Source of the DNA: Armatimonadota bacterium
Lineage (GTDB): Bacteria > Armatimonadota > Fimbriimonadia > Fimbriimonadales > GBS-DC
Length of the DNA stretch: 64,000 nt
Direction of reading: 5' to 3'
Assembly: GCA_030550775.1 (NCBI GenBank)
Contig: JAUQOS010000001.1
Span: 19,259 to 83,258 of the forward strand
In this document: positions 5,310 to 45,847 of the stretch, one piece after another
Position numbering within the stretch: the first letter of the stretch is position 1
Layout of the letters: each line of letters opens with the position of its first letter
Notes under the pieces: model-generated
The model's database searches: none
The model's input: only the letters and a program-made list of their open reading frames with translations
What the model was told of the DNA's origin: nothing
Position numbers and translations under genes: made by a program

Positions 5310-5735
5310 GTGCGCACGGCGGTAGAGACGGTGGAGCGTTGCTTGCAACTGATGGAGCGCTACCAGCTCCAAACGCTGGAGATTAGCGTGGGCGAGACGC
5401 ATCTGAGGATTGAACGCGCTGAGCTTGCGTCTGCGCCACAGGTCGCGCTTGTCGCACCGCCTGCGGAATCCACACCCTCCGAAGCCCCTGATTGGATTCC
5501 GATTGAGGCGCCGATGACAGGCATGTTCTATCGCGGACCCTCACCCAACGAGCCGCCTTATGTTGAAGAAGGCGACCTCATTTACGAAGGGCAAACTATC
5601 GGGCTGATTGAAGCGATGAAGGTGTTCAACGAAATTCCTTCGCCTGCTACCGGCGTGGTGCGACGGATCGTCGCGCAGAACGCTACTTTAGTGCAGCAAG
5701 GCGAGGTGCTGATGCTGCTGGAGCCACCCGAATGA
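5310..5735 (+). CDS. accB: Biotin carboxyl carrier protein-like (biotinyl domain)
   Basis: 141 aa with the biotinylation motif IEAMKVFNEI (EAMK) and a Pro/Ala linker. GGTATAAT (5296-5303) lies 6 nt upstream of GTG 5310. The stop overlaps the hom start (ATGA at 5732-5735). Confidence 0.75.
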   Translation: MRTAVETVERCLQLMERYQLQTLEISVGETHLRIERAELASAPQVALVAPPAESTPSEAPDWIPIEAPMTGMFYRGPSPNEPPYVEEGDLIYEGQTIGLIEAMKVFNEIPSPATGVVRRIVAQNATLVQQGEVLMLLEPPE

Positions 5736-7012
5736 GCAAAACCCTTCGCTTGGCAATACTGGGCGCGGGCACGGTGGGCGGCGGCGTGCTGACCCTGCTT
5801 CGCGAAAACGCCGACCTCCTGTACGCCCAAACAGGCAAGCAGTTTGTGGTGCGCCATGTAGTTGTGCGCGATCTTAGCAAGCCCCGCGCGGTTTCCATTG
5901 CCCCGCAGGTGCTGACCACCGACGCGCAACGCGCCATTAGCGACCCCCGCGTGGACGTGGTGCTGGAGCTAATGGGCGGCTTGGAACCCGCGCGCACGCT
6001 TATCCGTGAGGCATTGCTGCACGGCAAGCATGTGATTACCGCCAATAAGCTGGTAATAGCTGTGGCAGGCGACGAACTCATCCGCTTGGCGCAAAAGCAG
6101 CGCGTGCGCCTCCTTTACGAGGCGAGTGTGGCAGGCAGCTTGCCGATTCTCACCGCGTTGCAGGGCGCGTTGGGGGGCAACCGCATTACGCGCATCGTGG
6201 GCATCGTCAACAGCACTACCAACTTCATTCTGCGTGAGATGGAGCACGCCGTTGAGGCAGGCGAACCCGCCGAAGACGCCTACGCCAATGCCCTACGCAA
6301 AGCGCAAGAACTCGGCTACGCCGAAGCCGACCCCACCAGCGATGTGGAGGGCTACGACGCCCAGTACAAAACCGCAATCTTAGCGCGGCTGGCGTTCCTT
6401 CAGTATGTGCCTGTGGAAAGCGTCTACCGCGAGGGCATCACCCATCTCAGCGGGCGCGATCTTCTCTGGGCAACCCGCCTGCAGATGGGGCTGAAACTTT
6501 TGAGCATTACCGAACGACTACCCGACGGTAGGCTGTGTGCTCGTGTGCATCCCACGCTGCTCCCGCGCGAGCATCCCCTGTATGCCGTGCGTGGGGCGTT
6601 TAGCGGTATCTGGCTGCAGGGCAACGGCTTCCAAGAGATGCTCTTTCACGGTTTTGGAGCAGGTGCTCGCGCCACCGCCAGCGCGGTCGTCGGCGATCTA
6701 ATAGAAGTCGCCCGCCATCCACGCCCACTCAGGTTCGAGGACCCCTCTCTCCGCGCGGGCGAAACCGCCCCGCTCGAAACGCTGTCTATGCGCTACTACC
6801 TGCGCCTCACCGCGTCCGACGAGACAGCGTTGCGCCTCGTGCGTGAAACACTACACGCGCTTGGCGCCGAGCTACACCCTGCTGAATCCCTCGCGAATGG
6901 TATCGAACAAGTGGCACTTACCCCCATGCTCAACGAGGGCGAGTTCCAAGCTCGCCTTACCGCTTTGCGCCAGCAAACAGGCGTGCAGATTCAAGTCATT
7001 CGAGTGCTGTAG
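5732..7012 (+). CDS. hom: Homoserine dehydrogenase
   Basis: 426 aa with an NAD-binding N-terminus LAILGAGTVGGGV, ITANK, a catalytic region (YEASVAGSLPI, TNFIL, AEADPTSDVEGYDA) and a C-terminal ACT-like domain. Confidence 0.9.
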   Translation: MSKTLRLAILGAGTVGGGVLTLLRENADLLYAQTGKQFVVRHVVVRDLSKPRAVSIAPQVLTTDAQRAISDPRVDVVLELMGGLEPARTLIREALLHGKHVITANKLVIAVAGDELIRLAQKQRVRLLYEASVAGSLPILTALQGALGGNRITRIVGIVNSTTNFILREMEHAVEAGEPAEDAYANALRKAQELGYAEADPTSDVEGYDAQYKTAILARLAFLQYVPVESVYREGITHLSGRDLLWATRLQMGLKLLSITERLPDGRLCARVHPTLLPREHPLYAVRGAFSGIWLQGNGFQEMLFHGFGAGARATASAVVGDLIEVARHPRPLRFEDPSLRAGETAPLETLSMRYYLRLTASDETALRLVRETLHALGAELHPAESLANGIEQVALTPMLNEGEFQARLTALRQQTGVQIQVIRVL

Positions 7013-7017
7013 CCACG

Positions 7018-7706
7018 ATGGTAGGTATAATTCGCTTCGTGCAGGGCAACTACTCTTCTCTGCTCGTGCGGTACCGTTCACTTCGTGCAGAGGGGCATGC
7101 ACCCCGCGAGGCGTGGCAGCAAATCAAGCAAGCATTCCTTGCAGAAAGTACCGCGACAAACCCTGAACAAGCCTGGAAAAATGCCAGTGGGCGGGCATTT
7201 GAGCAAGTCAGTGCAGAGGAATTCGCCAAACAGCTCGAAGAACTCAAAATCTATCAGTGCAAGCCTGGAGTGATATTAAGGAACAGCTTGTCAAACGCAT
7301 CCTTAGCGAAACCTTGTGGTTGCGAGGCGAACTGCAGGAACCTTACATTGCCGAATCACGAGTGGATTTTGTGGCTTTCGAGCAAAGTGAAGGGCGCCCT
7401 ATTCGCGTGATTGCAGTTTATAGTTGCAAGGCTTCGCTTCGTGAGCGGTTCCAGCAAGATCTGTACTGGGCGGAAAAGTTTCGCTCCCGAGGCATTCGCT
7501 TTTGCTTTATTACTCTCGACAACGATGGGGTATTACTTCAAGCCGCTACACAAGGCACGCTGAGCAGCAAGCAAGCCAAAATGGCGCTCGCCCTCTACGA
7601 CAAGGTTTACTTGCTTACGGAAGAACCTATCCGGTATCATCAGCGCATTTTACGCCCCATCGACTCGCTGGGGGAGGACCTGCACCGATGGCAGCAAGCA
7701 GATTAG
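7018..7706 (+). pseudogene. Type II restriction endonuclease, PD-(D/E)xK (S-x-K variant), split by a 1-nt frameshift
   Basis: Two overlapping ORFs, 7018-7410 (frame 1) and 7257-7706 (frame 3). Frame 1 reads sensibly up to ...GRAFEQVSAEEFAKQLEELKI and then turns Cys-rich and implausible. Frame 3 is open from 7203 and reads sensibly from ...AWSDIKEQLVKRILSE. The second part carries VDFVAF...AVYSCKASLRER...AEKF (D, S-C-K, RER, E). The gene ends 19 nt inside the methylase gene. Confidence 0.6.
7025..7041 (+). repeat. Left copy of the 17-bp direct repeat bracketing the R-M cassette
   Basis: GTATAATTCGCTTCGTG here against GTATAATACGCTTCGTG at 9016-9032 (16/17 identical, 1991 bp apart). It contains a -10 box, a 7-nt spacer and GTG. 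Confidence 0.8.
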
Positions 7707-9010
7707 CCGTTTCCCAAGCGCACTTTGAAGGGCTGACACCCAACCCGAGTTGGGCGTTTCAGGAACTCACCCAGAAACAAACAAACTACGCCACTCACGG
7801 CTACCATCGTTACCCCGCCAAGTTCATCCCCCAACTGGCAGCCCGCCTCATTGAAGAATATTCCTCACCTAACGACTGGGTCGTAGATCCTTTTATGGGT
7901 TCGGGCACCACACTCGTGGAAGCGAAACTATTAGGACGCCCCAGTGTAGGCACCGACATCAATCCCGTTGCTCACCTTATCGCACGAGCGAAAACCCAAG
8001 CCATCGAACCAGAATACCTTGCGCAAACCATTGAACAAGTGCTAAGCTCGCTTTACAACACGGCTCAGCCAAGCCTCTTCGAAGAGCTACTGGAAAAAAC
8101 TGCCATAAGCCCCCCAGAATGGCACGAACGCCTCCGCTACTGGTTCCCCGAGAGCGCCCTCCAGCAACTGGCACAAATCCAACATGCAATCAACCGCATA
8201 CCCGACGATTCCGTACGCACATTCCTCGCATGCGCACTTTCGCATATCTTAAAAACCGTCTCATTCTGGCACGACCGAAGCGTGGAACCGATACGCAAAC
8301 TTAACAAAACCATTCCTGACGCACGTGTAGCGTTCCAGAAACACCTCAAGCGAATGGCACGGGGTAATCGCGAGTTTTGGGAGTTGCTGACCCTACACTC
8401 AAGGCTGGATGTGCCTACCCTTCCCCACTGCGCCGATGCGCGTACGCTCCCACTTGTCGACGAATCGGCTACCCTCGTCGTAACCTCGCCACCGTATGTC
8501 ACCAGCTACGAGTATGCGGATCTCCATCAGCTAAGTGCCCTTTGGTTTGGCTGGACAAGCAACCTGCAAGAGTTTCGGCAAAGATTCATCGGGCGCACCA
8601 ACAACAACCACGCGAGAACCCTCGAGTTAGGGTCAACCCTCGCGGAACGAATCGTGGCTCAACTTGCTGAAATTTGCCCACGAAAAGCACGTGAAGTCGC
8701 CCTCTATTTCAGCGAAATGGCTACCTGCTTCGGCGAAATGCGACGTATTCTGAAACCCGGCGGCTATGTCTGTATCGTAATCGGCAACACGAACCTGTGC
8801 GGCGTGGAAGTGCAAAACGCGCAGGTTTTCACGGAACAGCTCGATGCACTAGGCTTTTCCATTGAGCGCGTCATTCTGCGCGAAATTCCGTCCAAAATCC
8901 TTCCGCGTACACGCGACAAAACAACAGGCAAGTTCGCCAAAACCGAAGAAGCGAACTACATCGCTTACCCAACAGAATATATTCTCGTGGCTCGGCGTGC
9001 TTGCTCCTAA
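7688..9010 (+). CDS. DNA amino-methyltransferase (N4-cytosine/N6-adenine family, SPPY type, alpha motif order)
   Basis: SAM motif DPFMGSGTT (7886-7912) precedes catalytic motif TSPPY (SPPY at 8486-8497). ATG 7688 follows SD GGGGAGGA. The ORF-track extension back to 7502 overlaps the endonuclease and I discount it. Confidence 0.85.
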   Translation: MAASRLAVSQAHFEGLTPNPSWAFQELTQKQTNYATHGYHRYPAKFIPQLAARLIEEYSSPNDWVVDPFMGSGTTLVEAKLLGRPSVGTDINPVAHLIARAKTQAIEPEYLAQTIEQVLSSLYNTAQPSLFEELLEKTAISPPEWHERLRYWFPESALQQLAQIQHAINRIPDDSVRTFLACALSHILKTVSFWHDRSVEPIRKLNKTIPDARVAFQKHLKRMARGNREFWELLTLHSRLDVPTLPHCADARTLPLVDESATLVVTSPPYVTSYEYADLHQLSALWFGWTSNLQEFRQRFIGRTNNNHARTLELGSTLAERIVAQLAEICPRKAREVALYFSEMATCFGEMRRILKPGGYVCIVIGNTNLCGVEVQNAQVFTEQLDALGFSIERVILREIPSKILPRTRDKTTGKFAKTEEANYIAYPTEYILVARRACS

Positions 9011-9015
9011 ATCGA

Positions 9016-9032
9016 GTATAATACGCTTCGTG
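9016..9032 (+). repeat. Right copy of the 17-bp direct repeat
   Basis: GTATAATACGCTTCGTG. Its terminal GTG (9030) is the most plausible start of the Dop/PafA-family gene. Confidence 0.8.
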
Positions 9033-10571
9033 AACCGCCTGGTGGGGATTGAAACCGAGTATGGTCTATATGTGGAGGGGCGTGGGGTCGCCGACCAAGT
9101 GATGGAGGCGGTGAACCTGCTGCGCAATTGCCCGTTTCCCGCGGTTAGGGGCTGCTGGGATTACCGCTTGGAAGACCCGCGACGCGACATGCGTGGCTTC
9201 CGCGTGGAGCAACTCGCCGTAGACCCTGCCGATGCTCAAATTGAGCGCGAGCACCCCGTCACCCTCTCCGAGCGCGAAGTGCGTAATGACCATGTGCTTA
9301 CCAACGGCGCACGCCTCTACAACGACCACGCTCACCCCGAATACGCCACCCCCGAGTGTCGCCGCCTAATGGACCTTATCGCTCACGACAAAGCTGGCGA
9401 ACGCATCGTGCTGGCTTGCGCCCAAGCCTACGCTCAAAAAGCAGGTACCACCGTCAAACTTTACAAAAACAACACCGATTACCACGGCAGCAGCTACGGC
9501 ACCCACGAAAGCTACCTCCTGACCCGCGAGATACCTTTTGACACCTTAGCCACCACGATGATGCCGTTTTTGACCACACGGCAAATTTTCGCGGGTGCAG
9601 GCAAAGTGGGCGTGGAGGTCAACACCACCCCGCGCGTGCCGTACCAGATTAGTCAACGCGCCGACTTTTACATGGACACGATGAATGTAGAAACGCTCTA
9701 CCGCCGTCCGATTTTCAATACCCGCGACGAACCCCACGCCAAAATGCGCTACTATCGTCGGCTGCATGTCATCTGCGGCGACGCCAACATGAGTGAGTAT
9801 GCCACCGCGCTCAAAGTAGGCACTACCGCACTCGTGCTGGACTTGCTGGAAGAGGGCTGGGCAATCGACTTTTTCATTATTGAACCTGTGCGTGCTGCGC
9901 AAAGCATCTCGCGCGACCCCGACGGCAAGTGGCTCGTGGAAACCGACGCGGGCGTGATGAGCGCGATTGATATCCAACGCCATTATCTTCAGGCAGCGCA
10001 CACTCGGTTTGCAGGTCGCGACGCCGAAACCGACTGGCTGCTGCGCGAATGGGAAACTGTGCTCGACCTGTTGGAAACCGAACCCGAGCTGCTCAGCAAC
10101 CGCTTGGATTGGATCGCCAAACGCCAGCTGCTTACCCTGTTTGCCGAAACCGAGGGCATCGCACTGGATGACCCCGTAATGATTGCCCTCGACTTGGCGT
10201 ATCATGATATAGACCCTGCCGAGGGGCTATACTATGCCTTAGTCGAGCAAGGGCGTATGCAAACTTTGGTCAGCCCCGAGGCAGTGGAACTGGCAATGCG
10301 CCAGCCGCCAGCAGATACACGGGCGTACATTCGAGGTTTGGTGGTTGAACGCTACCCATCACAAGTGGAAAGCCTCAACTGGGAGCGTATCATCCTGCGC
10401 AACGAGGAGCAAACCGTGCGGCTGGACTTGAGCCAGCTGCTGGGCAATCTGCGCGATTTGAACCGCCGTCTTACGGCGGCACAAAGCATCACCGAGTTCG
10501 TGCAACTATTGCAATCGCCCCACAGGGCGAGCGAAACCAACAAGGAGGCACGCAATGATACTGCAGGCTGA
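9030..10571 (+). CDS. dop: Pup-ligase/deamidase family protein (Dop-like)
   Basis: N-terminus (M)NRLVGIETEYG. Also carries NGARLYNDHAHPEYATPEC; DHAHPEY looks more Dop-like than PafA-like, though this is from memory. The ORF-track start at 8862 overlaps the methylase. GTG 9030 lies 7 nt after TATAAT (9017-9022). Confidence 0.8.
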   Translation: MNRLVGIETEYGLYVEGRGVADQVMEAVNLLRNCPFPAVRGCWDYRLEDPRRDMRGFRVEQLAVDPADAQIEREHPVTLSEREVRNDHVLTNGARLYNDHAHPEYATPECRRLMDLIAHDKAGERIVLACAQAYAQKAGTTVKLYKNNTDYHGSSYGTHESYLLTREIPFDTLATTMMPFLTTRQIFAGAGKVGVEVNTTPRVPYQISQRADFYMDTMNVETLYRRPIFNTRDEPHAKMRYYRRLHVICGDANMSEYATALKVGTTALVLDLLEEGWAIDFFIIEPVRAAQSISRDPDGKWLVETDAGVMSAIDIQRHYLQAAHTRFAGRDAETDWLLREWETVLDLLETEPELLSNRLDWIAKRQLLTLFAETEGIALDDPVMIALDLAYHDIDPAEGLYYALVEQGRMQTLVSPEAVELAMRQPPADTRAYIRGLVVERYPSQVESLNWERIILRNEEQTVRLDLSQLLGNLRDLNRRLTAAQSITEFVQLLQSPHRASETNKEARNDTAG

Positions 10572-10743
10572 AGAGCGCGTCCGACGCTCAATACCAACTG
10601 AGCCGCTGACCCGCCCTGGCGGCGACGGCGACGGTCCAAGCCGTCCCGATGTGAAACGACCCGACACCAACGAGTTGCTGCGGCGTATGCGTCGCGTTGA
10701 TCCTGAGCAGGCGCGTCGCTACCGCCAACGCAGCGGCGAATAG
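10555..10743 (+). CDS. UBact/Pup-like small protein modifier
   Basis: 62 aa, predicted disordered, with a Gly/Asp stretch (PGGDGDGP). The C-terminus is ...VDPEQARRYRQRSGE (terminal Gly-Glu). SD AAGGAGG lies 6 nt upstream. It sits between the Dop-like gene and prcB. Confidence 0.75.
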   Translation: MILQAEERVRRSIPTEPLTRPGGDGDGPSRPDVKRPDTNELLRRMRRVDPEQARRYRQRSGE

Positions 10744-10981
10744 CTACCAACCTCAACATTAGCGCCTTGCTGACAAGCAGAGCTAATGCAGGTCGACTTA
10801 GTCGGCAGCACGGGAACGGCACGCCCCATGAACCATCGCACCAAAAGATGAACAACTAAAGCCGTTCCTGTGCATCATAAGCCTGCTCGTGCAGGTTATG
10901 CAGTGTTAGTATTTTCTCAACGACCCGTTCGCGAGACGCGAACGCTACAAAATAACGAACGGAAAAGACTCGTTTACGACC
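10744..10981 (+). other. Highly structured 238-nt spacer between the UBact gene and prcB
   Basis: Stems seen by eye: CATTAGC..TTGCT gac AAGCA..GCTAATG (10757-10788); GCACGGGAACGGC (10808-10820) pairing with GCCGTTCCTGTGC (10861-10873); CATAAGCCTGC tcgt GCAGGTTATG (10877-10900); CGTTCGCG aga CGCGAACG (10926-10944). Confidence 0.35.
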
Positions 10982-11779
10982 ATGCGGACACATATAGGCG
11001 ACTTTTTTGAATTATTGCAACGCTATCAGGCGCAAACGGGCGTACGCATCCCCATGTTGCAGCCCTTAGAAACGCCCGCTCACACCCCGAACAGCGCGCT
11101 GGAAGTGCACGGCACAACAGTTATCGCCCTGAAGTTCAAGGGCGGCGTGCTGAATGTGGGCGACCGACGCGCCACCGCCGCGAACGCCGTGATGTACGAC
11201 CGCGCCGACAAGATTGTTCCGTTAGACGACTACACGCTGATTGCCATCGCTGGGGCATACGGGCGTGCGATGGAGGTCGTGCGGTACCTGCGCCACGCCT
11301 TCAAGTACTACGCCCGCAGTCAGCTGCAACCAATGAGCCTCGATGGCAAACTGCAAGAAGTTAGCCGTGTCCTCTCGGCAAACCTGCCGAATGCTTTGGG
11401 CGGTATCGGGCTGTTCGTGCCCATCCTCAGCGTGTACGATCCCGACCAAGACCGCGGACGCATCTTCTTCTTCGATATCAGTGGGGCGCGGTTTGAAACC
11501 CCGGAATACGGCGCCGCTGGCTCGGGCGCGGAACGCATCCGTGGTGTGTTTGATTACATTACCAAAACCAAAGGCGCCTTCAGTGAGCGACCGCTGGAAG
11601 AAGTGCTGCGCGAGGCGATCCTGCTGCTCGACATCGCCGCCGACTTAGACGCTGCCACTGGCGGTATAGATAAAGTATTGCCTACCGCCCGCTACGCTAC
11701 CCGCGAGGGCGTGTTCGAAGTGCCCGAAGAGACTATCCGCGCGATCGTGCAATCCATCCGCACAGGAGGCAACGCCTGA
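10982..11779 (+). CDS. prcB: Proteasome subunit beta
   Basis: Propeptide followed by HG|TTVIALKFKGGVLNVGDRRAT (N-terminal Thr nucleophile motif). The stop overlaps the prcA start (ATGA-type junction at 11779). Confidence 0.9.
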   Translation: MRTHIGDFFELLQRYQAQTGVRIPMLQPLETPAHTPNSALEVHGTTVIALKFKGGVLNVGDRRATAANAVMYDRADKIVPLDDYTLIAIAGAYGRAMEVVRYLRHAFKYYARSQLQPMSLDGKLQEVSRVLSANLPNALGGIGLFVPILSVYDPDQDRGRIFFFDISGARFETPEYGAAGSGAERIRGVFDYITKTKGAFSERPLEEVLREAILLLDIAADLDAATGGIDKVLPTARYATREGVFEVPEETIRAIVQSIRTGGNA

Positions 11780-12531
11780 TGCTAACCCCTTACGATTTTC
11801 AGGAGAACCTTCAGCAGCGCGCCCAATATATTCGCAACCGTTTGCGCGCAGGCAGCCCCGTCATCGGCATCAGCTACGACAACGGCATTATGCTATTGTC
11901 GTTCAAGCGACGCGGGCGCAAAGTGTTCGAAATCTACGACCGCTTGATGTTCTCTGCCATTGGCAACCAAGCCGATGTGGAGAATCTGCGCTTGGCAGCG
12001 ATTGACTTCTCGCATCAAGAGGGCTTCGTGCGCAGCCCCGACGATGTGACGATCCAGCGCGTGGTGGGCTTTGCGCTTTCGCCCGCGCTCAAAAAAGCGT
12101 TCGGCGACCCGCTGACAGCGCCGTTTGTGGTGCGCGCGCTGTTTGCAGAGCTGCACGATACCCCCGAACACGACTTGTTCTACACCCTCAACTACGATGG
12201 CGAGTTCCTGCCCTACGAGCGCTTTGCCGTGATTGGCGGCACGGCAAACGCCGAGGAGCAAGCCACACGCTATTTGGAGGCGAACCTCAGTGGCGTGCCT
12301 ACTTTTGAGAGCAGCGTGCCGGTGGCGCTGACCGCGTGGGGCATCGCCTATGAGGCGGCGCAACTGGAAGAGGCAGACGGCGTTTCGGAAGAGGCAGGGC
12401 GACGCCGCCTGCGTGAACTGCTTGCCGAGGGGCAGCTGGAAGTAGGCATCTTAGAGCGGCACACCTTGCGCGAGAACCGCTTTCGCCTCGTGCCCCACGA
12501 GCAGATAGAGCCGTTCCTGCAACGGCTGTAG
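11779..12531 (+). CDS. prcA: Proteasome subunit alpha
   Basis: 250 aa, immediately after prcB. Shows the typical alpha-subunit N-terminus and core (VIGISYDNGIMLLS, FSAIGNQADVENLR). Confidence 0.85.
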   Translation: MLTPYDFQENLQQRAQYIRNRLRAGSPVIGISYDNGIMLLSFKRRGRKVFEIYDRLMFSAIGNQADVENLRLAAIDFSHQEGFVRSPDDVTIQRVVGFALSPALKKAFGDPLTAPFVVRALFAELHDTPEHDLFYTLNYDGEFLPYERFAVIGGTANAEEQATRYLEANLSGVPTFESSVPVALTAWGIAYEAAQLEEADGVSEEAGRRRLRELLAEGQLEVGILERHTLRENRFRLVPHEQIEPFLQRL

Positions 12532-12533
12532 CG

Positions 12534-14036
12534 CTACTGGCGTGCGGTCGTCAGCGAAAGCCCAAACAGCACCGCACTCGGGTTGCGTCGCCAGAACACG
12601 AACGGCTCAATACAGCGGTCGCGCCAGCCCACCAGCAGCTGCACATCGTACAGTTCGCGGCCGTCGAGGTCAAACTTCAGCAATGCGCCCACACGTGCGT
12701 TGCCTTGTTGGTATTCTACACGAAAACTGGCTTCGCGCCGGGCGCGTATCTGCTCCGACAGGAAGGGGCTGGTGTGGCGCGTGGAGGTTTGCGCATAGCC
12801 CGCCATTAGGGTTAGTTGCTCGCGAGGTTGCCACACTATCTCCAACTGGGGGCGTAGCCACTGGTAAGTATCGGCGATGCCTTGATAGCGCGTCAGGCTA
12901 CTCCACAGGCGCAGCTGGAGCTGCACGCTTTGGTTTGTCCACAAAGGCTGAAGCCATTCGCCTTCCAAGCTCAGGCGTTCGCGTGTGGGGGTACGCTGCC
13001 CATCTATCCGCTCGCTAAGGCTGCCATAGCGTAGGCTTACCTCGCCCGTGCCCGTTCGCGCCCGCGTGGGCACGATTAGCCCCAGTTCGCGTCGCGAGAC
13101 GCGTAGGCGCTCGCGTGGGGCAAATAGCGGGCGTATATCCGACGAATACTCCACGCGCACGGTGGGGGCGGGGCGTGTCTGGGTGCGCTCAGGACGTGCG
13201 CGCAGGTTGTACAGTGGCGACTGTTCAAAGCGTAGGCGTAAGTCGGGGTCGCCAAGGCTGGGCTCGCCTTCGCTGAGAGCCGCACCTCCTATCAAGCGCA
13301 GTTCAGGCACCGCGTGCAGGTAGCTTACTATCCCACCTTGCATCACCAAGCGATCGCCGATGGGCAACTCCACCTGCATGCGCAGCCCCCACCCTGTCTC
13401 GCGTGCATATACGGGCGATGGCATACTCACAATCTCGGCGGTCTCGCGCAGGCGCAGTGTGAACTGAGGCAAGCTCAGCACTTGCCTGCCGTAAAGCACG
13501 AGGCGGGCGTTGCTGACTGTAAGGCGCGCCCCTTGACGCAATCGTATTCGCCCTGCCTGCACGCGAATGGGCGGGCGAAACGGATCGCAGGTGGAAACCG
13601 TCGCTTCGCGGGCAGAAAAATCACCGAGGTCTCCTTCCAGCACAGCGGCGCGAACATAAACCCCCAACACCTCGGCTTGCACACCTTCAAACCGCCCCCG
13701 CTGCAATGCGTAGAAATAATCAATGCGCTCGCCTTGCAACACACCTTCAGGGGCGAAGAAACGGAACGGTGCGTTCGCACGCACGCGCTGCTGTTGCGCG
13801 TCTACAGCGAACTGTTCGCCCTCAAGTGTGCGCCCCTGGTATTCCATCACGACGGCGCCCGAGAGGTTGAGCAGCAACGTGCCCTCGTTAGTGCGGATAA
13901 CCTCGTAGGTAAGGGCGCGGATGGTAAGCGCCTCTTCGGATTGGGGAGCGCCGACGGTGAGTAGAAACGCCGCCCCGCAACCGATCGCGAGGCGGCGCAA
14001 TTGGGTGGTTATCTGGCGCGTGGATGGAAATTGCAT
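12534..14036 (-). CDS. LptD/OstA-like outer-membrane protein (short, 500 aa)
   Basis: Signal/anchor LAIGCGAAFLLTVGAP, an OstA-like N-terminal beta-jellyroll pattern, and the motif ATVSTCDPFRPPIRVQAGRIRL...ARLVLYGRQVLSLPQF, which resembles the LptD T-T-C-D...P-W signature. The C-terminal half has alternating beta-strand character. GGGTATAAT (complement of 14048-14056) lies 11 nt upstream of the ATG. Confidence 0.5.
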   Translation of the reverse strand: MQFPSTRQITTQLRRLAIGCGAAFLLTVGAPQSEEALTIRALTYEVIRTNEGTLLLNLSGAVVMEYQGRTLEGEQFAVDAQQQRVRANAPFRFFAPEGVLQGERIDYFYALQRGRFEGVQAEVLGVYVRAAVLEGDLGDFSAREATVSTCDPFRPPIRVQAGRIRLRQGARLTVSNARLVLYGRQVLSLPQFTLRLRETAEIVSMPSPVYARETGWGLRMQVELPIGDRLVMQGGIVSYLHAVPELRLIGGAALSEGEPSLGDPDLRLRFEQSPLYNLRARPERTQTRPAPTVRVEYSSDIRPLFAPRERLRVSRRELGLIVPTRARTGTGEVSLRYGSLSERIDGQRTPTRERLSLEGEWLQPLWTNQSVQLQLRLWSSLTRYQGIADTYQWLRPQLEIVWQPREQLTLMAGYAQTSTRHTSPFLSEQIRARREASFRVEYQQGNARVGALLKFDLDGRELYDVQLLVGWRDRCIEPFVFWRRNPSAVLFGLSLTTARQ

Positions 14037-14058: not shown

Positions 14059-17000
14059 TTAGTCGCGGTCGGGATCATAGGGGCTCGGGTAGAAGCGCGG
14101 TTGCAGGGCAGCCCCGTAGATGTTGCCCACGCCGTTGCGCGTGCTGCTCCAGAACAAGAGCAACGCCTCATCCAGACCGCCGTACTGGTCGTTGAATAGG
14201 CTGCGCGAGATATCGCGGAACTCCAAGTTTGGCATTGCCCACAGGTAAAGTTCGTTGGTGGGCAGGTCAATCGGCACAGGTGAGGTGTACTCAGGCTCCG
14301 CGCCCAGCCCGCGTGGCAGGTTGCCTTCATCAATCCAGCGGATGATTTGGATCTCTTCTTGCTCCACGATGCGCCCGTCTGGGGTGCGGGTTAGGTAGCG
14401 CACGCGCACCTGCTTGCCAAGGTCTTGCGCGGTGAAGTAGATGTTGCCGCGTTGCGCATCGTACTCGTAGAAGCCAAGTGCCGCGCCGGGGGCGTTCACG
14501 CCCACAAGCTGCACTGTGGCGTGGTTGGTGCCTTGAAGGAGCGTGGCACTGGCATCCAGCGGCAGCTGTCCGCGAACGGTTAGAATCGGCGCATTTAGCC
14601 GAATGCCTGGGCGCAGGGTCTTGAAGAAGAAACCGCCTGCACTATTGGGGGCGGGGCTGCTGCGTCGGAAGAAGACCCACACGCGATCCACCGTTGGGCG
14701 GTCGTCAGGGCTGCACACGCGGTTGAAGTCGCCCTTGCGCACAGGCGAGTCAGCGAGGCGCGTGGTAGCATGGCGCGGGTTGAGCGTGCGCTGAAACACC
14801 ACACGCACCTGCCCGTAAGTGCCTGCGGAGCCGGGCGCAGGCTCGTTTAGGCGATAAACGCGCGGGCGGTAGGTTACGGTCACGAGATCGCGTGCACGCG
14901 GTGCCATGTCTACAAAGCGTATCGTGCCCGTGGCAGGGTCAACCACAACGCGCCCGCGTGGGACAAGCGTGTTGCCGCTTACCTCGTTGTAGGCAAACAC
15001 CAGCAAGCCCGTTTGGGTGTCAACTGCTGGTTGTTGCAGGCGCAACTGGGCAGGATTGGCAGGGTTGCGCTCCAGCAGGATTGACCTGCCGTTGACCTTG
15101 ATATCTAAGTCTGGGTTGTTGGGGTCGCGGTTCCAGTCGCCAAACAGGGCGACCCAGTCAAGGTGGCGTGTGCGCCACACATTTTGGTTGGGGTCTTTGC
15201 GCGCCACCTCATCGGTGATGGCAGCGATGTAGCGTGGCAGCAGAGCATCGGTGATGGCTTCGCGTGCCTGACGGTCGGTCAAGGGCACTAACCGGCGTGT
15301 GAACGGGTTGATGTAGAAGCGTTGCATAAGCACTTCAGGCTCACTCTGGTCGCCCACGGTGCCCACGAAGAACACATCTGCCAGCAGCACGAAACCACTT
15401 GCCAAGTTGCTGGGGTCAGCTGCCACACGGTAGATGTTCGCGCCGACGCTCTCCACCGAGCGCACGATGCTCGACAGCGGCACGCGCTGTTCCGAGGGCA
15501 GTCGACGCACTGATTGCCAATCCGTAAACAGGTCGTTGGGGGTAGCGATGGTGAAAATACCGCTGCGCCCCGCAGGTGCTGCCACATAGAACAGCCAGTG
15601 TCCAACCCCTGTGATGCCAGTGATAGCAAGGCTGCTACGCGGCACAACGGGGTCCAGTGGCACGGTTTGCGGGTTGCCCAAAGGCAGCCCTGTGGCAGCG
15701 TCGAGGCGCACATAGAACAGCAATTCGTAGCGTTGATTGCGCACCACTACTTCGCCCGTCCAGAAGAGGAACGGCGCGCTGCCGGTGAAGTAGACAAACG
15801 GGCGATGATGTTTGATTGTGGCGATTTCAGATGCGGTCAGCGGGCGGTTCAGCCCCAACGCGGTGGCAAAGAGGGTGCCGTTGGGATCGTTCGGATAGGG
15901 TCCGAACAGTTCGCCCCACCAGCGGTCCGCGGAGGCAGGTTCCCAACCGTTGGTCGCACGCACTCCGTCTTGGTTGCGGTTGATGTTCCAGTTCAGCGTG
16001 GATTTGTACAGGTAGAAGCTGTCGGGACGGTTGGCTGGGTCGAAGCGGTTGCTTGCCCAATAGAGGTGCAGCCTACCCGTGTTGGGGTCGCGGAACGCCG
16101 CGGGGGTGAGGTCGCTGACGCGCAGCGCGTTGGGGGGCGGCACATCATCAATCATTGGGCGAACCCCGCGGTTGGTGCTGCCTGTGAGTTGCGTTTCGCG
16201 CACACGCACCACCAAGCGCATGGGCGGCACCGCAAAGCTCCATCCTTCCTGCACCACGCCTGCGCCCTGATTGGGTGGGCCGTTGTGTTGGTAGGGCGCC
16301 ACGAGCTGCGAATAGACGCCCAACGGTTGGAACGGCGGGATGGCGATTGAAACCAATGGCTTGCGCGGGAGCGGCACTTCCACATTGGCTGGGCGGCGCG
16401 GCGGAATCGCAGGAATGCCCAACACGGTGGCGGTGTAGTCGCCCACCTGCGGCTTCTGTAATACGGGAAACGGTTGGTTGAGGGTGGGCGTCCAGAACGG
16501 GTTCGGTTGGGGCCAGAAGCGCGGATCCAAGGTGCTGACCACCGTCGTCCACACTGGGATGCGCGCGAAGAAGGCTGCAGTATCGGAGTAGAGATACTCC
16601 GTGCCTTGAGGCGTGCCAAACGCTTTGCCCAAGTACACAGGGAACAAGTTGACATTGCCTTCGTTGCGTACGGTGAAGGGCTTCCAGAAGGGCTCAAACA
16701 GCGGGTTGTCGGGGCGGAACAGCGAGCCGGCATTGTTGGCAAACAGCGTGCCCCAGTTGAAACCAAAGCCGCCCGGCAGCGAACCGAAATCAATCGTCTG
16801 CTCTTCCACAAACATCCGCTCGTCAACCCGCACCGCGACGGTGGTGTTGACCACACGGTACGGCTCTGCAAACAGGTTGCGCGTGGCGTTGATGCCTGTG
16901 ATGTTCTCCAAGCGATCAATGCGCCCATTGCCGTTCACATCGTGGTAAATGATGATGCCACCGTCGTAGCCGCCAGGGTTGGCAGGCTGGAAGCGTGGGA

Positions 17001-20000
17001 TATCCACCCGCACGTCGACGCGGGTGCCTGTACCGAACACGGGGCTGGGAGCGCGTTGTAGTTCGGTCGCCCCGCCTGCCAACAGCTGCATGCGTCGTGC
17101 GGGGATGTCGGGATAGTCTGGGCTGGCGTTGCTCGGATAGGTCGGTGGGATTTCCCACGGCAGCATGCGGATGGGCACCTGTCCCGCTTGCCAGGCTAAG
17201 TCATTGGCGAAAGCGCGTGCGAGTATCTGCAACGGCACGGGGTTCTCTGTCTGGAGGCGGCGGCGGTCAAACACCTCAAAGTCGCCTACCACAGTGTTGC
17301 CGTGATCGCCTTGCGCGATCGGTTGCTCGCCCAGCGGGCTGAGGAACCGCACGGGCACGCGCACTGCCGGTCGCGATGGATCGGTTTCGTCGGGGCTATT
17401 GCCGTTGAACAGGTTCGCATTCGCGTCGCCGTTGCCCACCACCGCACCTTGCGCCCCACGCACACCCAACGGGTTCGCGATGCCCACACGCCAACCCGAT
17501 GCGGTCGTGAACTCCACGGGCGGATAGGAGGGCACCTCGGCTCCGCCGCCGGGCGCAGGGCGGTCAACCTCGACTGTTTCACGCCACAAGTCAGCTGTCC
17601 AACCAAACACGCCGTCCACGGATACCTGCAGTTCGTAGGTGCTGCCCGGCGTGTAGAAGTTATTGGCAGACGGCTGAATTGCGAACTCACCTGTGGCGAT
17701 GTAGTCCAGCGTGCTGTCTTCGCGGGGCGGGTTCGGCGTTTGGCGCACTTGCAAGACTTGCTCGGCGCGCGACACGCCTGGCCCAAACAGCTGCACGCGC
17801 ACTTGGCGTGGCTGCGTGCCTTGACGGAAGTTCCATACCACCACATAGAAGCGGTCGCCCCACTCCAGCGCGTCGGGGTAAATCGGGGTGAGTTCGTCGG
17901 GGCGGATGCGTCCGTCGCGCACGGCTTCAAACTCTTCGCGCTTGGTCGTGATGGATACGCGCAGCTTACCGTAGTCGCCTCCGTCTTGGGTTGTGGTGCC
18001 TGTGGGATCGCGGATAATCTCGCCCAGCCCGCTCTCAGGTGCCGCTTGGGCGATGCCCGACACATTGAATGCATAGGCGATGCCGTCGTCATCTGCGGCG
18101 TAGAGCCAGCCATCCAGCACGCCTGGCGAGGCGAACACCGTTTCGCCATACAGATCCCAGCCCTCGAACGCCTTGCCACCGCGGGCGTTAGTGAGTTGGT
18201 CGGCGTGGAGAGCGAGCAGCCGCCCTTCATTCGTGGCAACCACCACCGCTGGGCGTGCTGCTGCAATCTCGTTGCCATCGGCGTCGGTGTCTTGCACATT
18301 CGTGAAGATAGGCGAGCTGAATATCGCACCACCCAACGACTCGCTGATGTAAATCAGATTGCCGTTGTCTGCGTTGAAGGCAATAATGCGCCCAATCTCG
18401 CCCCCGACATAGACGATGTTCGTAGGCGTACCGTTGTAGAGCACGCCAGGCACCACCAGCGGCGAGCTGTAGAAGAAGTTGAACTGCGGCACGCGCGGCG
18501 CATCCACGCGGGGCTGCGCCCACACCAGTTGCCCTGTGGCAGCGTCGACCGCGTATACACGACCGCCACCCAAGCCACCGCTGGTAAAGTACACGCGCCC
18601 CAATGCTACCGCCGGCGTGGAAGTAATCGGTTCAATCGGGAAATCGCCCTCCTTAGGATAAACCCACTCCACGCGCTCATCAACGCTCGTGTTGGGATCA
18701 TCCTCACGGAACGGGTTGAGCGCAATCAGCCGCCCATACAGATTACCGCCTTCCACACTGCCGATGTAGACCAAGCGGGTGCTCGGGTCGTACGCTGGCG
18801 TGGACACGAACGCCGCGTTGGGGCGATTATACTGCCAGAAGAAGTAGCTGTCGGGGTCGTTGGGGTTCAAATCGGTTTTGATCACATACACTGAGCCGGC
18901 AGGGTTGCCGATAACAACGCGGTCATCGCCCACGATTAGGGGCGAGGCGTAGTTAAAGCTGGTAGCGTTGCGCGGCTTCACGATCCAGTAGATTTTCGTC
19001 TGTCCGCGCAGGGTGCCGTTCTCGCCGTCGCCTAATGCGTCAATGGCATACACCGCGCCGTTCTGAGCTGCCACAAACACTACCAAGCGCGTGACGATGG
19101 TGTTGCCGTCGCGGATGCGCACCTGCCCGACCGCTGGCGTGGAGTAGATGCCGCTATCTAAGCCCTCGGCGTCCAACAGCCGAATAGCGTCTGCCACCAC
19201 GCGCTGCGAGCCAAGCACCACATCATCGGGCGAATAGTTGGTGACAGAGATTTCGTAGGTGGTGCCCACGCGCATCTCAAGCGGCACATTGTTGAGGCGC
19301 ACCCACCGTCCGCCAAAGCGCTGATCAACGCGAATGCGCTGCTCGCCCCCTTGATACTCAATCACATATTCGGCAAAGCGGGCGTTCTGCTCGTCCGAAG
19401 GGAACCATGCTTCCACGTAGTAGCGCCCCGTGCGCGGTACACGCACACGCCAGTAGGCACGCTGGATATTGTTCGCGTTATTGGTGGGTGCAATCTCGTA
19501 GTAGCTGGGGCTGTAAGCATCGGCTAAGATGTTGTCTTCTGTGAAGAGCCCTGGCGTGAAGTCAGTGCGACTGTCGTAGATAATGCCTTGAGCTTGGTCG
19601 GGCACATCAGGCAGGCGCAGAGTCCAGCGCACGCGCGCGCCTCGCGTGCCCACAGGGTTTTCAACACAGGTTAGCGTGCCGTTGCCGTTAGCGATATAGA
19701 CCAAGTGGTTGCCTGGGTTGAGTGGGTTTCGGATGGCGACCGGCGACGCCTGAACAGTGCCGTAATCGGGCACAAAGCGCACGGCATCTGCTACCACAAT
19801 CGTAGGCGCATCCAGCGACGGAAACTCGCCGTTTTCCGCCTGGAAGCGATTCGTGAGTGTAATCGTGATTCCATCTGCGCTGCCGTTGTGATAGAAGGAA
19901 CGGTCGCCCAACTGACGCCAACCGCCAACGGTTTGGTCAACGAACTCTGGGTGAACCCCTATGCCGTCGGCGACGATGTACTCGGCGCGTGGCGAGTATT

Positions 20001-20457
20001 GCAGCCGTTGCGAACCGGCGCGGGTGGGCGTAGCAGGCACATACACATAGATGCGATAGTAGCCCGCAGGGAGCGGTCCGCTGCGCCAAGTAAAGGTAGA
20101 ACTCGCGTCAGGGCGCGTGTAGGCATATCGGTAGGGCTCAGTTGTGTTCGGGTCGTCGCGATATGGGTCAATCGCGCTTTCGCCTGCTGTGGGCACAATC
20201 CAGTCGCCCGTGGCGCTGGCAAGGGCAGAGTCGTTATCGATAATCAGCGGCGCGCGCACTGCCTCTAAATCAGGCAGTGTCCATGCCAGCAGCAGGCTCA
20301 CTGCGCTGTTGCGCGCGTTGTCCGTGGTGCCTGTGCGTTGTTCGCTGCCACGATGCGTATGCCAGCTATCTTGCGCCGCAACCAGCGCAAACACGCCAAA
20401 CCACAGTCCTGCAAAAAGTCCGCGCACTGCCGAATTCCAGTTCATTCGCCCTACCAT
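14059..20457 (-). CDS. Giant secreted PilY1-like beta-propeller protein (2132 aa), sixth gene of the pilin operon
   Basis: Signal peptide (LFAGLWFGVFALVAAQD). Two golvesin-C-like modules (aa ~120-230 and ~330-428, ending VVADAVRFV / VVADAIRLL). PQQ/BamB-like blades (STPAVG...GAVYAIDALGDG, GRVYAVDAATGQLVWA, GRIIAFNADNGN, GIAYAFN). The remaining ~1300 aa has nothing I recognise. Confidence 0.8.
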   Translation of the reverse strand: MVGRMNWNSAVRGLFAGLWFGVFALVAAQDSWHTHRGSEQRTGTTDNARNSAVSLLLAWTLPDLEAVRAPLIIDNDSALASATGDWIVPTAGESAIDPYRDDPNTTEPYRYAYTRPDASSTFTWRSGPLPAGYYRIYVYVPATPTRAGSQRLQYSPRAEYIVADGIGVHPEFVDQTVGGWRQLGDRSFYHNGSADGITITLTNRFQAENGEFPSLDAPTIVVADAVRFVPDYGTVQASPVAIRNPLNPGNHLVYIANGNGTLTCVENPVGTRGARVRWTLRLPDVPDQAQGIIYDSRTDFTPGLFTEDNILADAYSPSYYEIAPTNNANNIQRAYWRVRVPRTGRYYVEAWFPSDEQNARFAEYVIEYQGGEQRIRVDQRFGGRWVRLNNVPLEMRVGTTYEISVTNYSPDDVVLGSQRVVADAIRLLDAEGLDSGIYSTPAVGQVRIRDGNTIVTRLVVFVAAQNGAVYAIDALGDGENGTLRGQTKIYWIVKPRNATSFNYASPLIVGDDRVVIGNPAGSVYVIKTDLNPNDPDSYFFWQYNRPNAAFVSTPAYDPSTRLVYIGSVEGGNLYGRLIALNPFREDDPNTSVDERVEWVYPKEGDFPIEPITSTPAVALGRVYFTSGGLGGGRVYAVDAATGQLVWAQPRVDAPRVPQFNFFYSSPLVVPGVLYNGTPTNIVYVGGEIGRIIAFNADNGNLIYISESLGGAIFSSPIFTNVQDTDADGNEIAAARPAVVVATNEGRLLALHADQLTNARGGKAFEGWDLYGETVFASPGVLDGWLYAADDDGIAYAFNVSGIAQAAPESGLGEIIRDPTGTTTQDGGDYGKLRVSITTKREEFEAVRDGRIRPDELTPIYPDALEWGDRFYVVVWNFRQGTQPRQVRVQLFGPGVSRAEQVLQVRQTPNPPREDSTLDYIATGEFAIQPSANNFYTPGSTYELQVSVDGVFGWTADLWRETVEVDRPAPGGGAEVPSYPPVEFTTASGWRVGIANPLGVRGAQGAVVGNGDANANLFNGNSPDETDPSRPAVRVPVRFLSPLGEQPIAQGDHGNTVVGDFEVFDRRRLQTENPVPLQILARAFANDLAWQAGQVPIRMLPWEIPPTYPSNASPDYPDIPARRMQLLAGGATELQRAPSPVFGTGTRVDVRVDIPRFQPANPGGYDGGIIIYHDVNGNGRIDRLENITGINATRNLFAEPYRVVNTTVAVRVDERMFVEEQTIDFGSLPGGFGFNWGTLFANNAGSLFRPDNPLFEPFWKPFTVRNEGNVNLFPVYLGKAFGTPQGTEYLYSDTAAFFARIPVWTTVVSTLDPRFWPQPNPFWTPTLNQPFPVLQKPQVGDYTATVLGIPAIPPRRPANVEVPLPRKPLVSIAIPPFQPLGVYSQLVAPYQHNGPPNQGAGVVQEGWSFAVPPMRLVVRVRETQLTGSTNRGVRPMIDDVPPPNALRVSDLTPAAFRDPNTGRLHLYWASNRFDPANRPDSFYLYKSTLNWNINRNQDGVRATNGWEPASADRWWGELFGPYPNDPNGTLFATALGLNRPLTASEIATIKHHRPFVYFTGSAPFLFWTGEVVVRNQRYELLFYVRLDAATGLPLGNPQTVPLDPVVPRSSLAITGITGVGHWLFYVAAPAGRSGIFTIATPNDLFTDWQSVRRLPSEQRVPLSSIVRSVESVGANIYRVAADPSNLASGFVLLADVFFVGTVGDQSEPEVLMQRFYINPFTRRLVPLTDRQAREAITDALLPRYIAAITDEVARKDPNQNVWRTRHLDWVALFGDWNRDPNNPDLDIKVNGRSILLERNPANPAQLRLQQPAVDTQTGLLVFAYNEVSGNTLVPRGRVVVDPATGTIRFVDMAPRARDLVTVTYRPRVYRLNEPAPGSAGTYGQVRVVFQRTLNPRHATTRLADSPVRKGDFNRVCSPDDRPTVDRVWVFFRRSSPAPNSAGGFFFKTLRPGIRLNAPILTVRGQLPLDASATLLQGTNHATVQLVGVNAPGAALGFYEYDAQRGNIYFTAQDLGKQVRVRYLTRTPDGRIVEQEEIQIIRWIDEGNLPRGLGAEPEYTSPVPIDLPTNELYLWAMPNLEFRDISRSLFNDQYGGLDEALLLFWSSTRNGVGNIYGAALQPRFYPSPYDPDRD

Positions 20458-20460
20458 CGC

Positions 20461-25173: not shown

Positions 25174-25188
25174 CGTCTTACACCTCGC

Positions 25189-27828: not shown

Positions 27829-27829
27829 C

Positions 27830-29722: not shown

Positions 29723-29758
29723 TCGGTAGACTTACTCCTTTGAGGGTAGGTTCCAGTT

Positions 29759-31588: not shown

Positions 31589-31664
31589 CGGTTATCGCCC
31601 CTTCGTACTTGCACGGCGACCAGTAGCCGTGCGACTACAACACGCCTGCTGTGCGTTGTGCCGC

Positions 31665-32477
31665 CTATGGGCGCATCAGGTAAGGCGACTCGAACATCTG
31701 ACGCGAGTCGACCACCTTCACATTGCCCGTTAGGAACAGCACAATGTCGTTTTTCGCGCGTTGCGGAATATCACCATCATATGAGCGATGATAAGTGCAC
31801 CAAGTAACCACAGCAGTCGTGTCGGGTGCACGATAACCCAGTTGGCGTGGGTTGTCGCTGCCTTTGGGACCTATGTCGCCATCGTAGTAGCCCTGACCGT
31901 ACTGGGTACCGCTACGCTGATTCTCCTGTTGGTTTAGCTCTTGATCCGACCAAAACAGCGTGTAGCGCAGCTCGTACACAAACGAGTTGCCGCGTGGCAC
32001 GCGCCCTACCGAATAACTATCGTAGGCGTAGAAGCAAACTTGTGGCGCGTTCGGTAGCCCCGTGCCAAAACGCACGGGCGTGGTGCCTTGCCCATAGAGG
32101 GCATGCCCGCGCGGATAGTATGCCTGCACGATTGTGCGCTTGTCGCTAATGGGGTTGTTCGGGCAGTAGAAAATCTCGTCGTTCTTGAGATAGCTCCCCA
32201 GTGGTTTCGGGGCACGGTCAAACGGCACCGCCGCTTGCTGGTTACAAGTCAGGTTGCCGTTCGCATCCACCGCATACGCGCCCAACACAAAGGGGTATGC
32301 ACGGTAGTCTTCCTTGTATTGTTGTAGCGCAAGATAAATTTGGCTTAGGTTTGAGATGCAGCGGCTGCGTCGCGCATTCTCGCGCACCGTGCCCGCAACA
32401 GGAAAAATAATCGCCGCCAAAATAGCGATTATCGCGATCACCGTCAACAACTCCACCAGAGTAAAACCTCGCCGCAT
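31665..32477 (-). CDS. Prepilin-type pilin/pseudopilin (270 aa), first gene of the operon
   Basis: MRRG|[23 protein letters not shown] (Gly-1, Phe+1, Glu+5). The GspG/DUF1559-like body has a degenerate C-terminal tail ([15 protein letters not shown]). Confidence 0.85.
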
Positions 32478-45792: not shown

Positions 45793-45847
45793 CTGACGAT
45801 TCGCGCCGATGCCAGTTTCTCCTTGCGTGAGGTATGCTAAGCGCAGC

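Follow-up and report, generated by a model that had tools for sequence, protein, structure and literature searches.

A 64,000-nt window of contig JAUQOS010000001.1 (assembly GCA_030550775.1, positions 19,259 to 83,258 of the forward strand), whose host is a hot-spring Fimbriimonadales bacterium of the phylum Armatimonadota, contains a UBact-type proteasome locus at window positions 9030-12531, consisting of the genes for a Dop-type enzyme, the tag protein UBact and the proteasome subunits PrcB and PrcA. We consider it very probable that this locus is a UBact-proteasome operon, i.e. the counterpart of the Pup-proteasome system outside the Actinobacteria, with the two remaining components, PafA and Mpa, most likely encoded elsewhere in the genome. 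The four-gene locus already belongs to a catalogued system, UBact being curated in both Pfam and NCBIfam, and its arrangement is unusual yet conserved; the finding is sound and largely ordinary.

All four genes lie on the + strand. The Dop-type gene (9030-10571; 513 aa, GTG start; PF03136) is followed by the UBact gene (10555-10743; 62 aa with the C-terminus ARRYRQRSGE; PF20513, NF033388), a 238-nt spacer (10744-10981), prcB (10982-11779; 20S proteasome beta subunit with a 44-aa propeptide; PF00227) and prcA (11779-12531; 20S proteasome alpha subunit; PF00227). The 3' end of dop overlaps the UBact gene by 17 nt, and the start of prcA overlaps the stop of prcB by 1 nt. A -10-type box, GTATAAT (9016-9022, + strand), which is a putative promoter, ends 7 nt before the GTG of the Dop-type gene. 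Public metagenome contigs of this organism (JGI 3300022541, SRR7787772 and others), annotated with independent gene callers, carry the same four protein predictions. An earlier reading of the window, made from its letters alone (the sequence-only reading), had delimited the same four open reading frames (ORFs) and had proposed a UBact-type locus with a single Dop-like family enzyme plus PrcB and PrcA; the ORF positions, family matches and independent gene calls bear out the former, and the latter is upheld by the family scores, tree, signature residues and fold match presented below.

The tag, the Dop-type enzyme and the proteasome subunits

The 62-aa protein scored 82.9 bits against the UBact family PF20513 (cut-off 27.8) and 89.5 bits against NF033388 (cut-off 35), and no Pfam family besides UBact, Pup included, matched it at E <= 0.01 in the Pfam scan. 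Its last residues, RYRQRSGE, carry the C-terminal motif R-[ST]-G-[EQ], and RQR[ST]G[EQ] terminates every UBact orthologue found in related loci; full-length orthologues were present in every one of the 61 related loci that covers the position. The scores and the motif support the identification of the protein as UBact, which the sequence-only reading had made from its C-terminus, and the concern raised there that the small ORF might not be conserved in relatives is dispelled by the full-length orthologues found across phyla. The ratio of non-synonymous to synonymous substitution rates (dN/dS) of the UBact gene is 0.05 overall, with 0.10 in the half encoding the N-terminus and 0.015 in that encoding the C-terminus, and the N-terminal half retains a motif that is common to lineages with an adjacent mpa gene. 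The hydropathy of the protein, 0.33, lies below the boundary of 0.44, and of its 62 residues 14 are Arg and 7 are Pro, both of which are consistent with intrinsic disorder; no solved structure related to UBact was found.

The window UBact ends in Glu, and Gln is found at this position in 7 of 11 related species, including the one with the complete genome AP024673.1. Since UBact ends in Gln in these seven species, a deamidase role of the Dop-type enzyme is to be expected in the clade, and such a role would explain why Dop is the enzyme that is kept in the cassette. The remark in the sequence-only reading that no deamidation is required therefore holds for the window genome, with its Glu end, but not for the clade.

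The 513-aa enzyme matched the Pup_ligase family PF03136 with 523.7 bits in the Pfam scan. Its best NCBIfam match was TIGR03688 (Dop) with 470.5 bits, under the equivalog cut-off of 492.3, and TIGR03686 (PafA) gave 361.5 bits (cut-off 551.3) in an alignment that begins only at residue 87, so that the Dop model outscores the PafA model by 109 bits. The solved Dop structure from Acidothermus (4b0r) was matched with 374 bits (E = 1e-110, ~40% identity) over enzyme residues 1-498, and the solved PafA structure (4b0t) with 237 bits; the latter alignment starts only at residue 85, as there is no Dop-loop in PafA. A neighbour-joining tree of 86 sequences separates the PafA clade from the Dop clade and places the enzyme among the Dops, which gives the phylogenetic placement that the sequence-only reading had called for. 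Furthermore, an AlphaFold2 model of the enzyme, with a predicted local distance difference test score (pLDDT) of 82.6, reached Foldseek template modelling scores of 0.79-0.84 to Dop structures and 0.69-0.74 to PafA structures.

The residues that distinguish the two enzymes point in the same direction. The Dop-loop before strand beta-2 is present, as residues ~40-86 align with the loop of the Acidothermus enzyme, and its residues W43, Y45, E48, D53, R55, G56 and F57 show no variation in a set of 31 homologues; the role of W47 in the Dop-loop has been described (PMC8599861). At the ligase/hydrolase-separating positions taken from Table 1 of Hecht et al. (PMC7947786), the enzyme has the Dop states, namely Pro103, Phe208, an aliphatic amino acid at 84 and a D-H-A-H that lacks the extra residue of PafA. 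The PafA states Phe84, D-[AVM]-[SGD]-H, His208 and Asp452 are not found in it, and are present in the 23 UBact-type PafAs that were recovered. The sole PafA-like state is Ser101 -> Ala, which several PafA-partnered Dops share. In the alpha-loop, which is a loop in Dop and a helix in PafA, the AlphaFold2 model has no helix at residues 209-226 (pLDDT 68-87), but as the PafA control has a pLDDT of <50 there, this comparison favours neither enzyme. The catalytic Asp in the motif NDHAHPEY and the motif GIETEYG are both kept, and the loss of catalytic residues, which the sequence-only reading had named as one observation that would speak against its proposal, has not taken place. The 513-aa enzyme is thus of the Dop type, with a predicted deamidase/deconjugase activity. 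Its identity as a PafA was also considered and is ruled out by the TIGR03686 score below the cut-off, the Dop-loop and the missing PafA signatures.

PrcB matched PF00227 with 85.6 bits, and its best NCBIfam match was TIGR03690 (bacterial 20S beta), below the equivalog cut-off. In the alignment, PrcB residue 45 falls on the first residue of the mature beta chains from Rhodococcus and M. tuberculosis, and the catalytic Thr1, Asp17 and Lys33 are all present. PrcA matched PF00227 with 30.7 bits (cut-off 22.4) and, as its best NCBIfam match, TIGR03691 (bacterial 20S alpha) with 84.3 bits, under the cut-off of 139. The two genes thus have the hallmarks of a bacterial 20S proteasome, i.e. a beta subunit with a propeptide and catalytic residues, and an adjoining alpha subunit. 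The spacer between the UBact gene and prcB is longer in the window (238 nt) than in relatives (3-181 nt), and the terminator scan found no terminator-like site on its + strand.

Conservation and architecture of the locus in relatives

A genome scan with the Dop-type enzyme yielded 61 loci, the gene content of which was mapped by tblastn. The nearest relatives of the window enzyme are found in metagenome-assembled genomes of Fimbriimonadales, mainly from hot springs. In 11 species with an enzyme 81-85% identical to that of the window, the order Dop-UBact-PrcB-PrcA was found wherever the contig was long enough, three short contigs ending inside the cassette. No mpa or pafA gene was detected by tblastn within ~8-10 kb of the cassette in the three loci with full flanks (L019, L020 and L021), the last of which belongs to the complete genome AP024673.1 (2.99 Mb; 2,987,958 bp). 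The dS is near 1 for all four genes, and dN/dS ranges from 0.05 to 0.11, the values for dop, prcB and prcA being 0.11, 0.08 and 0.09, respectively. Because dN/dS is low in all four genes, we take the cassette to be functional and under strong purifying selection, and not a remnant.

The flanks of the cassette are unrelated between the sub-lineages of the clade, and the DNA upstream of the GTATAAT box is likewise unrelated between them. The box itself is invariant and ends 7 nt before the GTG in 12 of 12 clade species (the window, L012-L021 and L024), in all of which dop starts with GTG and encodes MN(K)RL(V/L/I)GIETEYG. The four genes appear to form a mobile unit with a promoter of its own. 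The GTG of dop has no Shine-Dalgarno sequence before it, and this, together with the position of the invariant box and the unrelated DNA beyond it, suggests a leaderless or near-leaderless transcript that would begin with GUG. A generic promoter and terminator scan of positions 8700-12800 gave counts no higher than those of shuffled controls, and the GTATAAT box went unreported in it because a -35 box is absent. The sequence-only reading had held that the start of dop was disturbed by the insertion of restriction-modification genes. This claim fails, because the invariant arrangement of box, 7-nt distance and GTG shows the start to be undamaged by the neighbouring genes, and the N-terminus of the enzyme aligns with the solved Dop from residue 1.

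More distant loci differ in the number of adjacent system genes. A six-gene order Mpa-Dop-UBact-PrcB-PrcA-PafA was found in Chthonomonadales, Nitrospiraceae, Leptospirillum, Fraserbacteria, Bipolaricaulia and others. Locus L011 has Mpa-Dop-UBact-PrcB-PrcA with pafA not adjacent, and the same five genes without an adjacent pafA occur in a Capsulimonadaceae locus (L075, 10001-16823); in another Capsulimonadaceae locus (L073, 10001-14648) pafA stands alone between unrelated genes. Two Capsulimonadales-type loci have Dop-UBact-PrcB-PrcA, with mpa and pafA not neighbouring. In deeper Fimbriimonadia (Fimbriimonadaceae and relatives), whose enzymes are 38-47% identical to that of the window, Dop-UBact-PrcB is followed by unrelated genes with no adjacent prcA (L050, L054, L056, L057, L059, L064 and L068, at ~11400-13700 in each), and in L043 only Dop-UBact is left. 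The Fimbriimonadaceae-type genomes either have prcA elsewhere or make a beta-only particle. Within the Armatimonadota, the loci form a series that runs from six adjacent genes of the system through five, four and three down to two. To our knowledge, neither this graded series nor a fixed four-gene self-promoted cassette of the whole Fimbriimonadales clade has been described before.

Several other genes were seen in or beside these loci. The gene after prcA in L075 encodes 489 aa with only a faint bPH_6 match, two ankyrin-repeat genes follow the solitary pafA in L073, and the genes after prcB in the Fimbriimonadaceae-type loci encode RibBA, a peptidase and a secreted repeat protein. Within two six-gene loci, an 82-aa ORF lies between the Dop and UBact genes (L009, 11666-11914), and a methyltransferase-like gene plus two small ORFs lie between the Mpa and Dop genes (L074, 4688-6372).

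Proposed working of the system and its ligase and unfoldase

The biochemical roles proposed here for the tag, the Dop-type enzyme and the 20S particle are borrowed from the Pup system, while their identities, conservation, selection and catalytic residues are those found above. By this analogy UBact would be a small disordered tag that is attached, through the side chain of its C-terminal Glu, to lysines in the target proteins. In sister species the Dop-type enzyme would turn a Gln-ended tag into the Glu form; it would also strip UBact from tagged proteins, and PrcB and PrcA would form a 20S protease that degrades the tagged proteins. The genes of dop and UBact, as well as those of prcB and prcA, appear to be translationally coupled through their overlaps, and the four genes form a self-contained cassette, with a putative promoter box immediately upstream of the GTG. 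The ligase PafA and the unfoldase Mpa would be supplied from another site of the genome.

Within the 64 kb of the window, no second gene of the Pup-ligase family was found by tblastn with the window enzyme or with one PafA from related loci, no mpa gene was found by tblastn with two Mpa proteins from related loci, and Pfam scans of 20 further large ORFs revealed neither; the single AAA-type match in the window is a RadA/Sms-like gene (45809-47260). These searches agree with the sequence-only reading, according to which the window holds neither Mpa nor a second ligase, and which rightly drew no conclusion on the remainder of the genome.

We think it probable that PafA and Mpa are located elsewhere in the genome, for three reasons. 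Firstly, closely related species differ in whether their UBact ends in Glu or in Gln, and the same alternation is seen for Pup in Actinobacteria that possess both enzymes. Secondly, selection still acts on the N-terminal half of UBact, which keeps the motif of the Mpa-adjacent lineages; in Pup, the N-terminal half engages Mpa, and serves Mpa rather than the enzymes. Thirdly, split loci exist in the same phylum (L073 and L075, and similarly L011).

Several observations weigh against this placement. No PafA or Mpa of the window's lineage was seen anywhere in the 64 kb of the window or in the ~10 kb around the cassettes of the relatives. Protein searches with the PafA and Mpa of the Armatimonadota locus L022 returned no Fimbriimonadales name and no AP024673.1 protein among the best 120 matches, a result that is uninformative, as these matches were filled by 63-75% identical proteins of other orders. 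Three separate clades of the Armatimonadota have neither PafA nor Mpa at the locus, and the further absence of PrcA beside PrcB in deeper Fimbriimonadia looks like progressive reduction and not simple relocation. Lastly, the Gln end is commoner where pafA is not adjacent. Among the loci that are flanked by 2.5 kb or more on each side, and without correction for shared ancestry, UBact ends in Glu in 14 six-gene loci and in Gln in 1; the corresponding numbers are 3 and 4 for the four-gene loci and 2 and 9 for the three-gene loci. Gln is found in 13 of 19 well-flanked loci without an adjacent pafA versus 1 of the 15 six-gene loci.

These observations can also be read in another way, which we regard as unlikely, namely that the Fimbriimonadia have lost PafA and Mpa, and that the Dop-type enzyme both attaches and removes UBact. 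Two routes are conceivable: a lysine instead of water might capture the phosphorylated UBact intermediate, or a Gln-ended UBact, as an already activated donor, might be transferred directly by transamidation. The 20S particle may then work with another activator or with none, and a beta-only particle would be possible in Fimbriimonadaceae. The absence of mpa and pafA within ~10 kb in three clades and >25 loci speaks for such a single-enzyme system, as do the shrinkage of the locus to Dop-UBact-PrcB and Dop-UBact in deeper Fimbriimonadia and the enrichment of Gln ends without an adjacent pafA (Fisher p = 0.0002 over all loci, uncorrected for relatedness). Precedents come from the enzyme family itself. 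Dop phosphorylates the C-terminal Glu of Pup, an intermediate that PafA uses too (PMC8599861); 20 substitutions make Dop a ligase, one variant performs both reactions, and the ancestral enzyme is thought to have been promiscuous (PMC7947786). In addition, some Planctomycetes have single-copy Dop/PafA homologues (PMC7947786, PMC2588565). On the other hand, the window enzyme is plainly Dop-like, with no systematic shift from PafA-partnered Dops at the separating positions, and it keeps the Dop-loop, which favours hydrolysis. Moreover, the window UBact ends in Glu and is unusable for transamidation, and no ligase activity is detectable in wild-type Dop (PMC7947786). The split loci of the Capsulimonadaceae also show that absence from the locus is not absence from the genome. 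What is left of our expectation beyond PafA and Mpa lying elsewhere and a single-enzyme system goes to mixed outcomes.

It is very improbable that a six-gene system has been decaying into the present cassette and has lost its function. The locus lacks two of the usual six genes, and Dop, PrcB and PrcA miss the NCBIfam equivalog cut-offs, narrowly or clearly, a shortfall for which the mainly actinobacterial make-up of the models would account. Four genes intact across 12 species at a dS of ~1 with dN/dS of 0.05-0.11, the retained catalytic residues of the enzyme and PrcB, and the conserved promoter box and gene overlaps all argue for a working system, and we reject decay on the dN/dS values. 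It is next to inconceivable that the small ORF, short, of low complexity and overlapping the upstream gene by 17 nt as it is, should have arisen by chance or encode an ordinary Pup of the actinobacterial type, given that it scores 3x and 2.6x above the two UBact cut-offs with no other Pfam match, ends in RSGE and not in GGE or GGQ, and is conserved over its full length at the same position across phyla with a dN/dS of 0.05.

Neighbouring genes and comparison with known systems

Upstream of the cassette lie hom (5732-7012) and, directly before dop, a restriction-modification pair (7018-9010) that consists of a BsaWI-like endonuclease and an N6/N4 DNA methylase, in a stretch with a G+C content of 0.53 compared with ~0.60. 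The endonuclease is broken up into two ORFs that overlap in different reading frames (7018-7410 and 7257-7706), with the family match in the second ORF only, and the methylase appears intact; the pair is probably an orphan methylase next to a decayed nuclease. The hom gene, the restriction-modification genes and the downstream genes of the window stand at the cassette only in the window's own species, and none of the relatives examined has any of them next to it. The sequence-only reading had regarded the restriction-modification genes as an insertion between hom and dop; such an event cannot be reconstructed, because no relative has hom adjoining dop. In AP024673.1 an unrelated, apparently split methylase gene lies just 3' of the cassette (L008, 13401-14464). 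Downstream of the cassette, a convergent gene on the - strand (12534-14036) encodes 500 aa with a signal-like N-terminus and has no Pfam or NCBIfam match, so that its earlier label as an outer membrane protein was not confirmed. Very large genes follow on the same strand (14059-32477), encoding 2132 aa (with Golvesin_C and PQQ-like propeller matches), 1570 aa and 879 aa, and after these come three genes whose products carry prepilin-type N-terminal methylation motifs, DUF1559 being present in one of them.

A UBact-proteasome system was reportedly described in Nitrospirae, Verrucomicrobia, Armatimonadetes and other phyla by Lehmann et al. in BBRC in 2017. The window cassette resembles it in the R-[ST]-G-[EQ] end of the tag, in the position of UBact directly after the Dop-type gene and before prcB-prcA, and in coming from a phylum, the Armatimonadetes, that is among those named. 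It differs in that no mpa gene lies upstream and no pafA gene downstream, an arrangement that is fixed in the hot-spring Fimbriimonadales clade. We know of no published biochemistry of UBact. With the actinobacterial Pup system (mpa, dop, pup, prcB, prcA and pafA in M. tuberculosis) the locus shares the enzyme family and fold, the gene order dop-tag-prcB-prcA, a disordered tag ending in Glu or Gln, and a beta subunit with a propeptide and Thr1. In contrast to that system, the window tag ends in RSGE instead of GGE or GGQ and matches only the UBact model in Pfam, the proteasome subunits are divergent and score under the NCBIfam equivalog cut-offs, and neither mpa nor pafA is a neighbour. The split loci of the Capsulimonadaceae (L075 and L073) are of the same phylum, have the same components and likewise keep pafA apart from the Dop-UBact-PrcB-PrcA block; however, mpa adjoins dop there, and a solitary pafA was found there, whereas none was found for the Fimbriimonadales clade.

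Reduced systems are known as well. Corynebacterium has Pup, PafA, Dop and ARC and no 20S particle. Planctomycetes and Plesiocystis have one PafA/Dop homologue and a Pup-like gene, with no proteasome genes (PMC2588565, PMC7947786), and Pup-like genes outside the Actinobacteria, in some lineages with one family enzyme, were reported in 2008 (PMC2588565) and in 2020 (PMC7947786). These cases are similar to the window locus insofar as partial forms occur, including ones with a single family enzyme. They differ from it in that the protease is missing and a ligase or an undifferentiated homologue is retained, whereas the window keeps the protease, and the one family enzyme found with it is a differentiated Dop.

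With this locus, a family that is already recognised by standard annotation gains a clear instance of the UBact system in a thermophilic lineage, and the hot-spring proteins would be convenient for structural work. If PafA and Mpa are truly absent from the whole genome, the clade would provide a test case for ligation by a Dop-type enzyme and for the divergence of ligase and hydrolase (PMC7947786), as well as for the supply of substrates to a bacterial 20S proteasome without Mpa.

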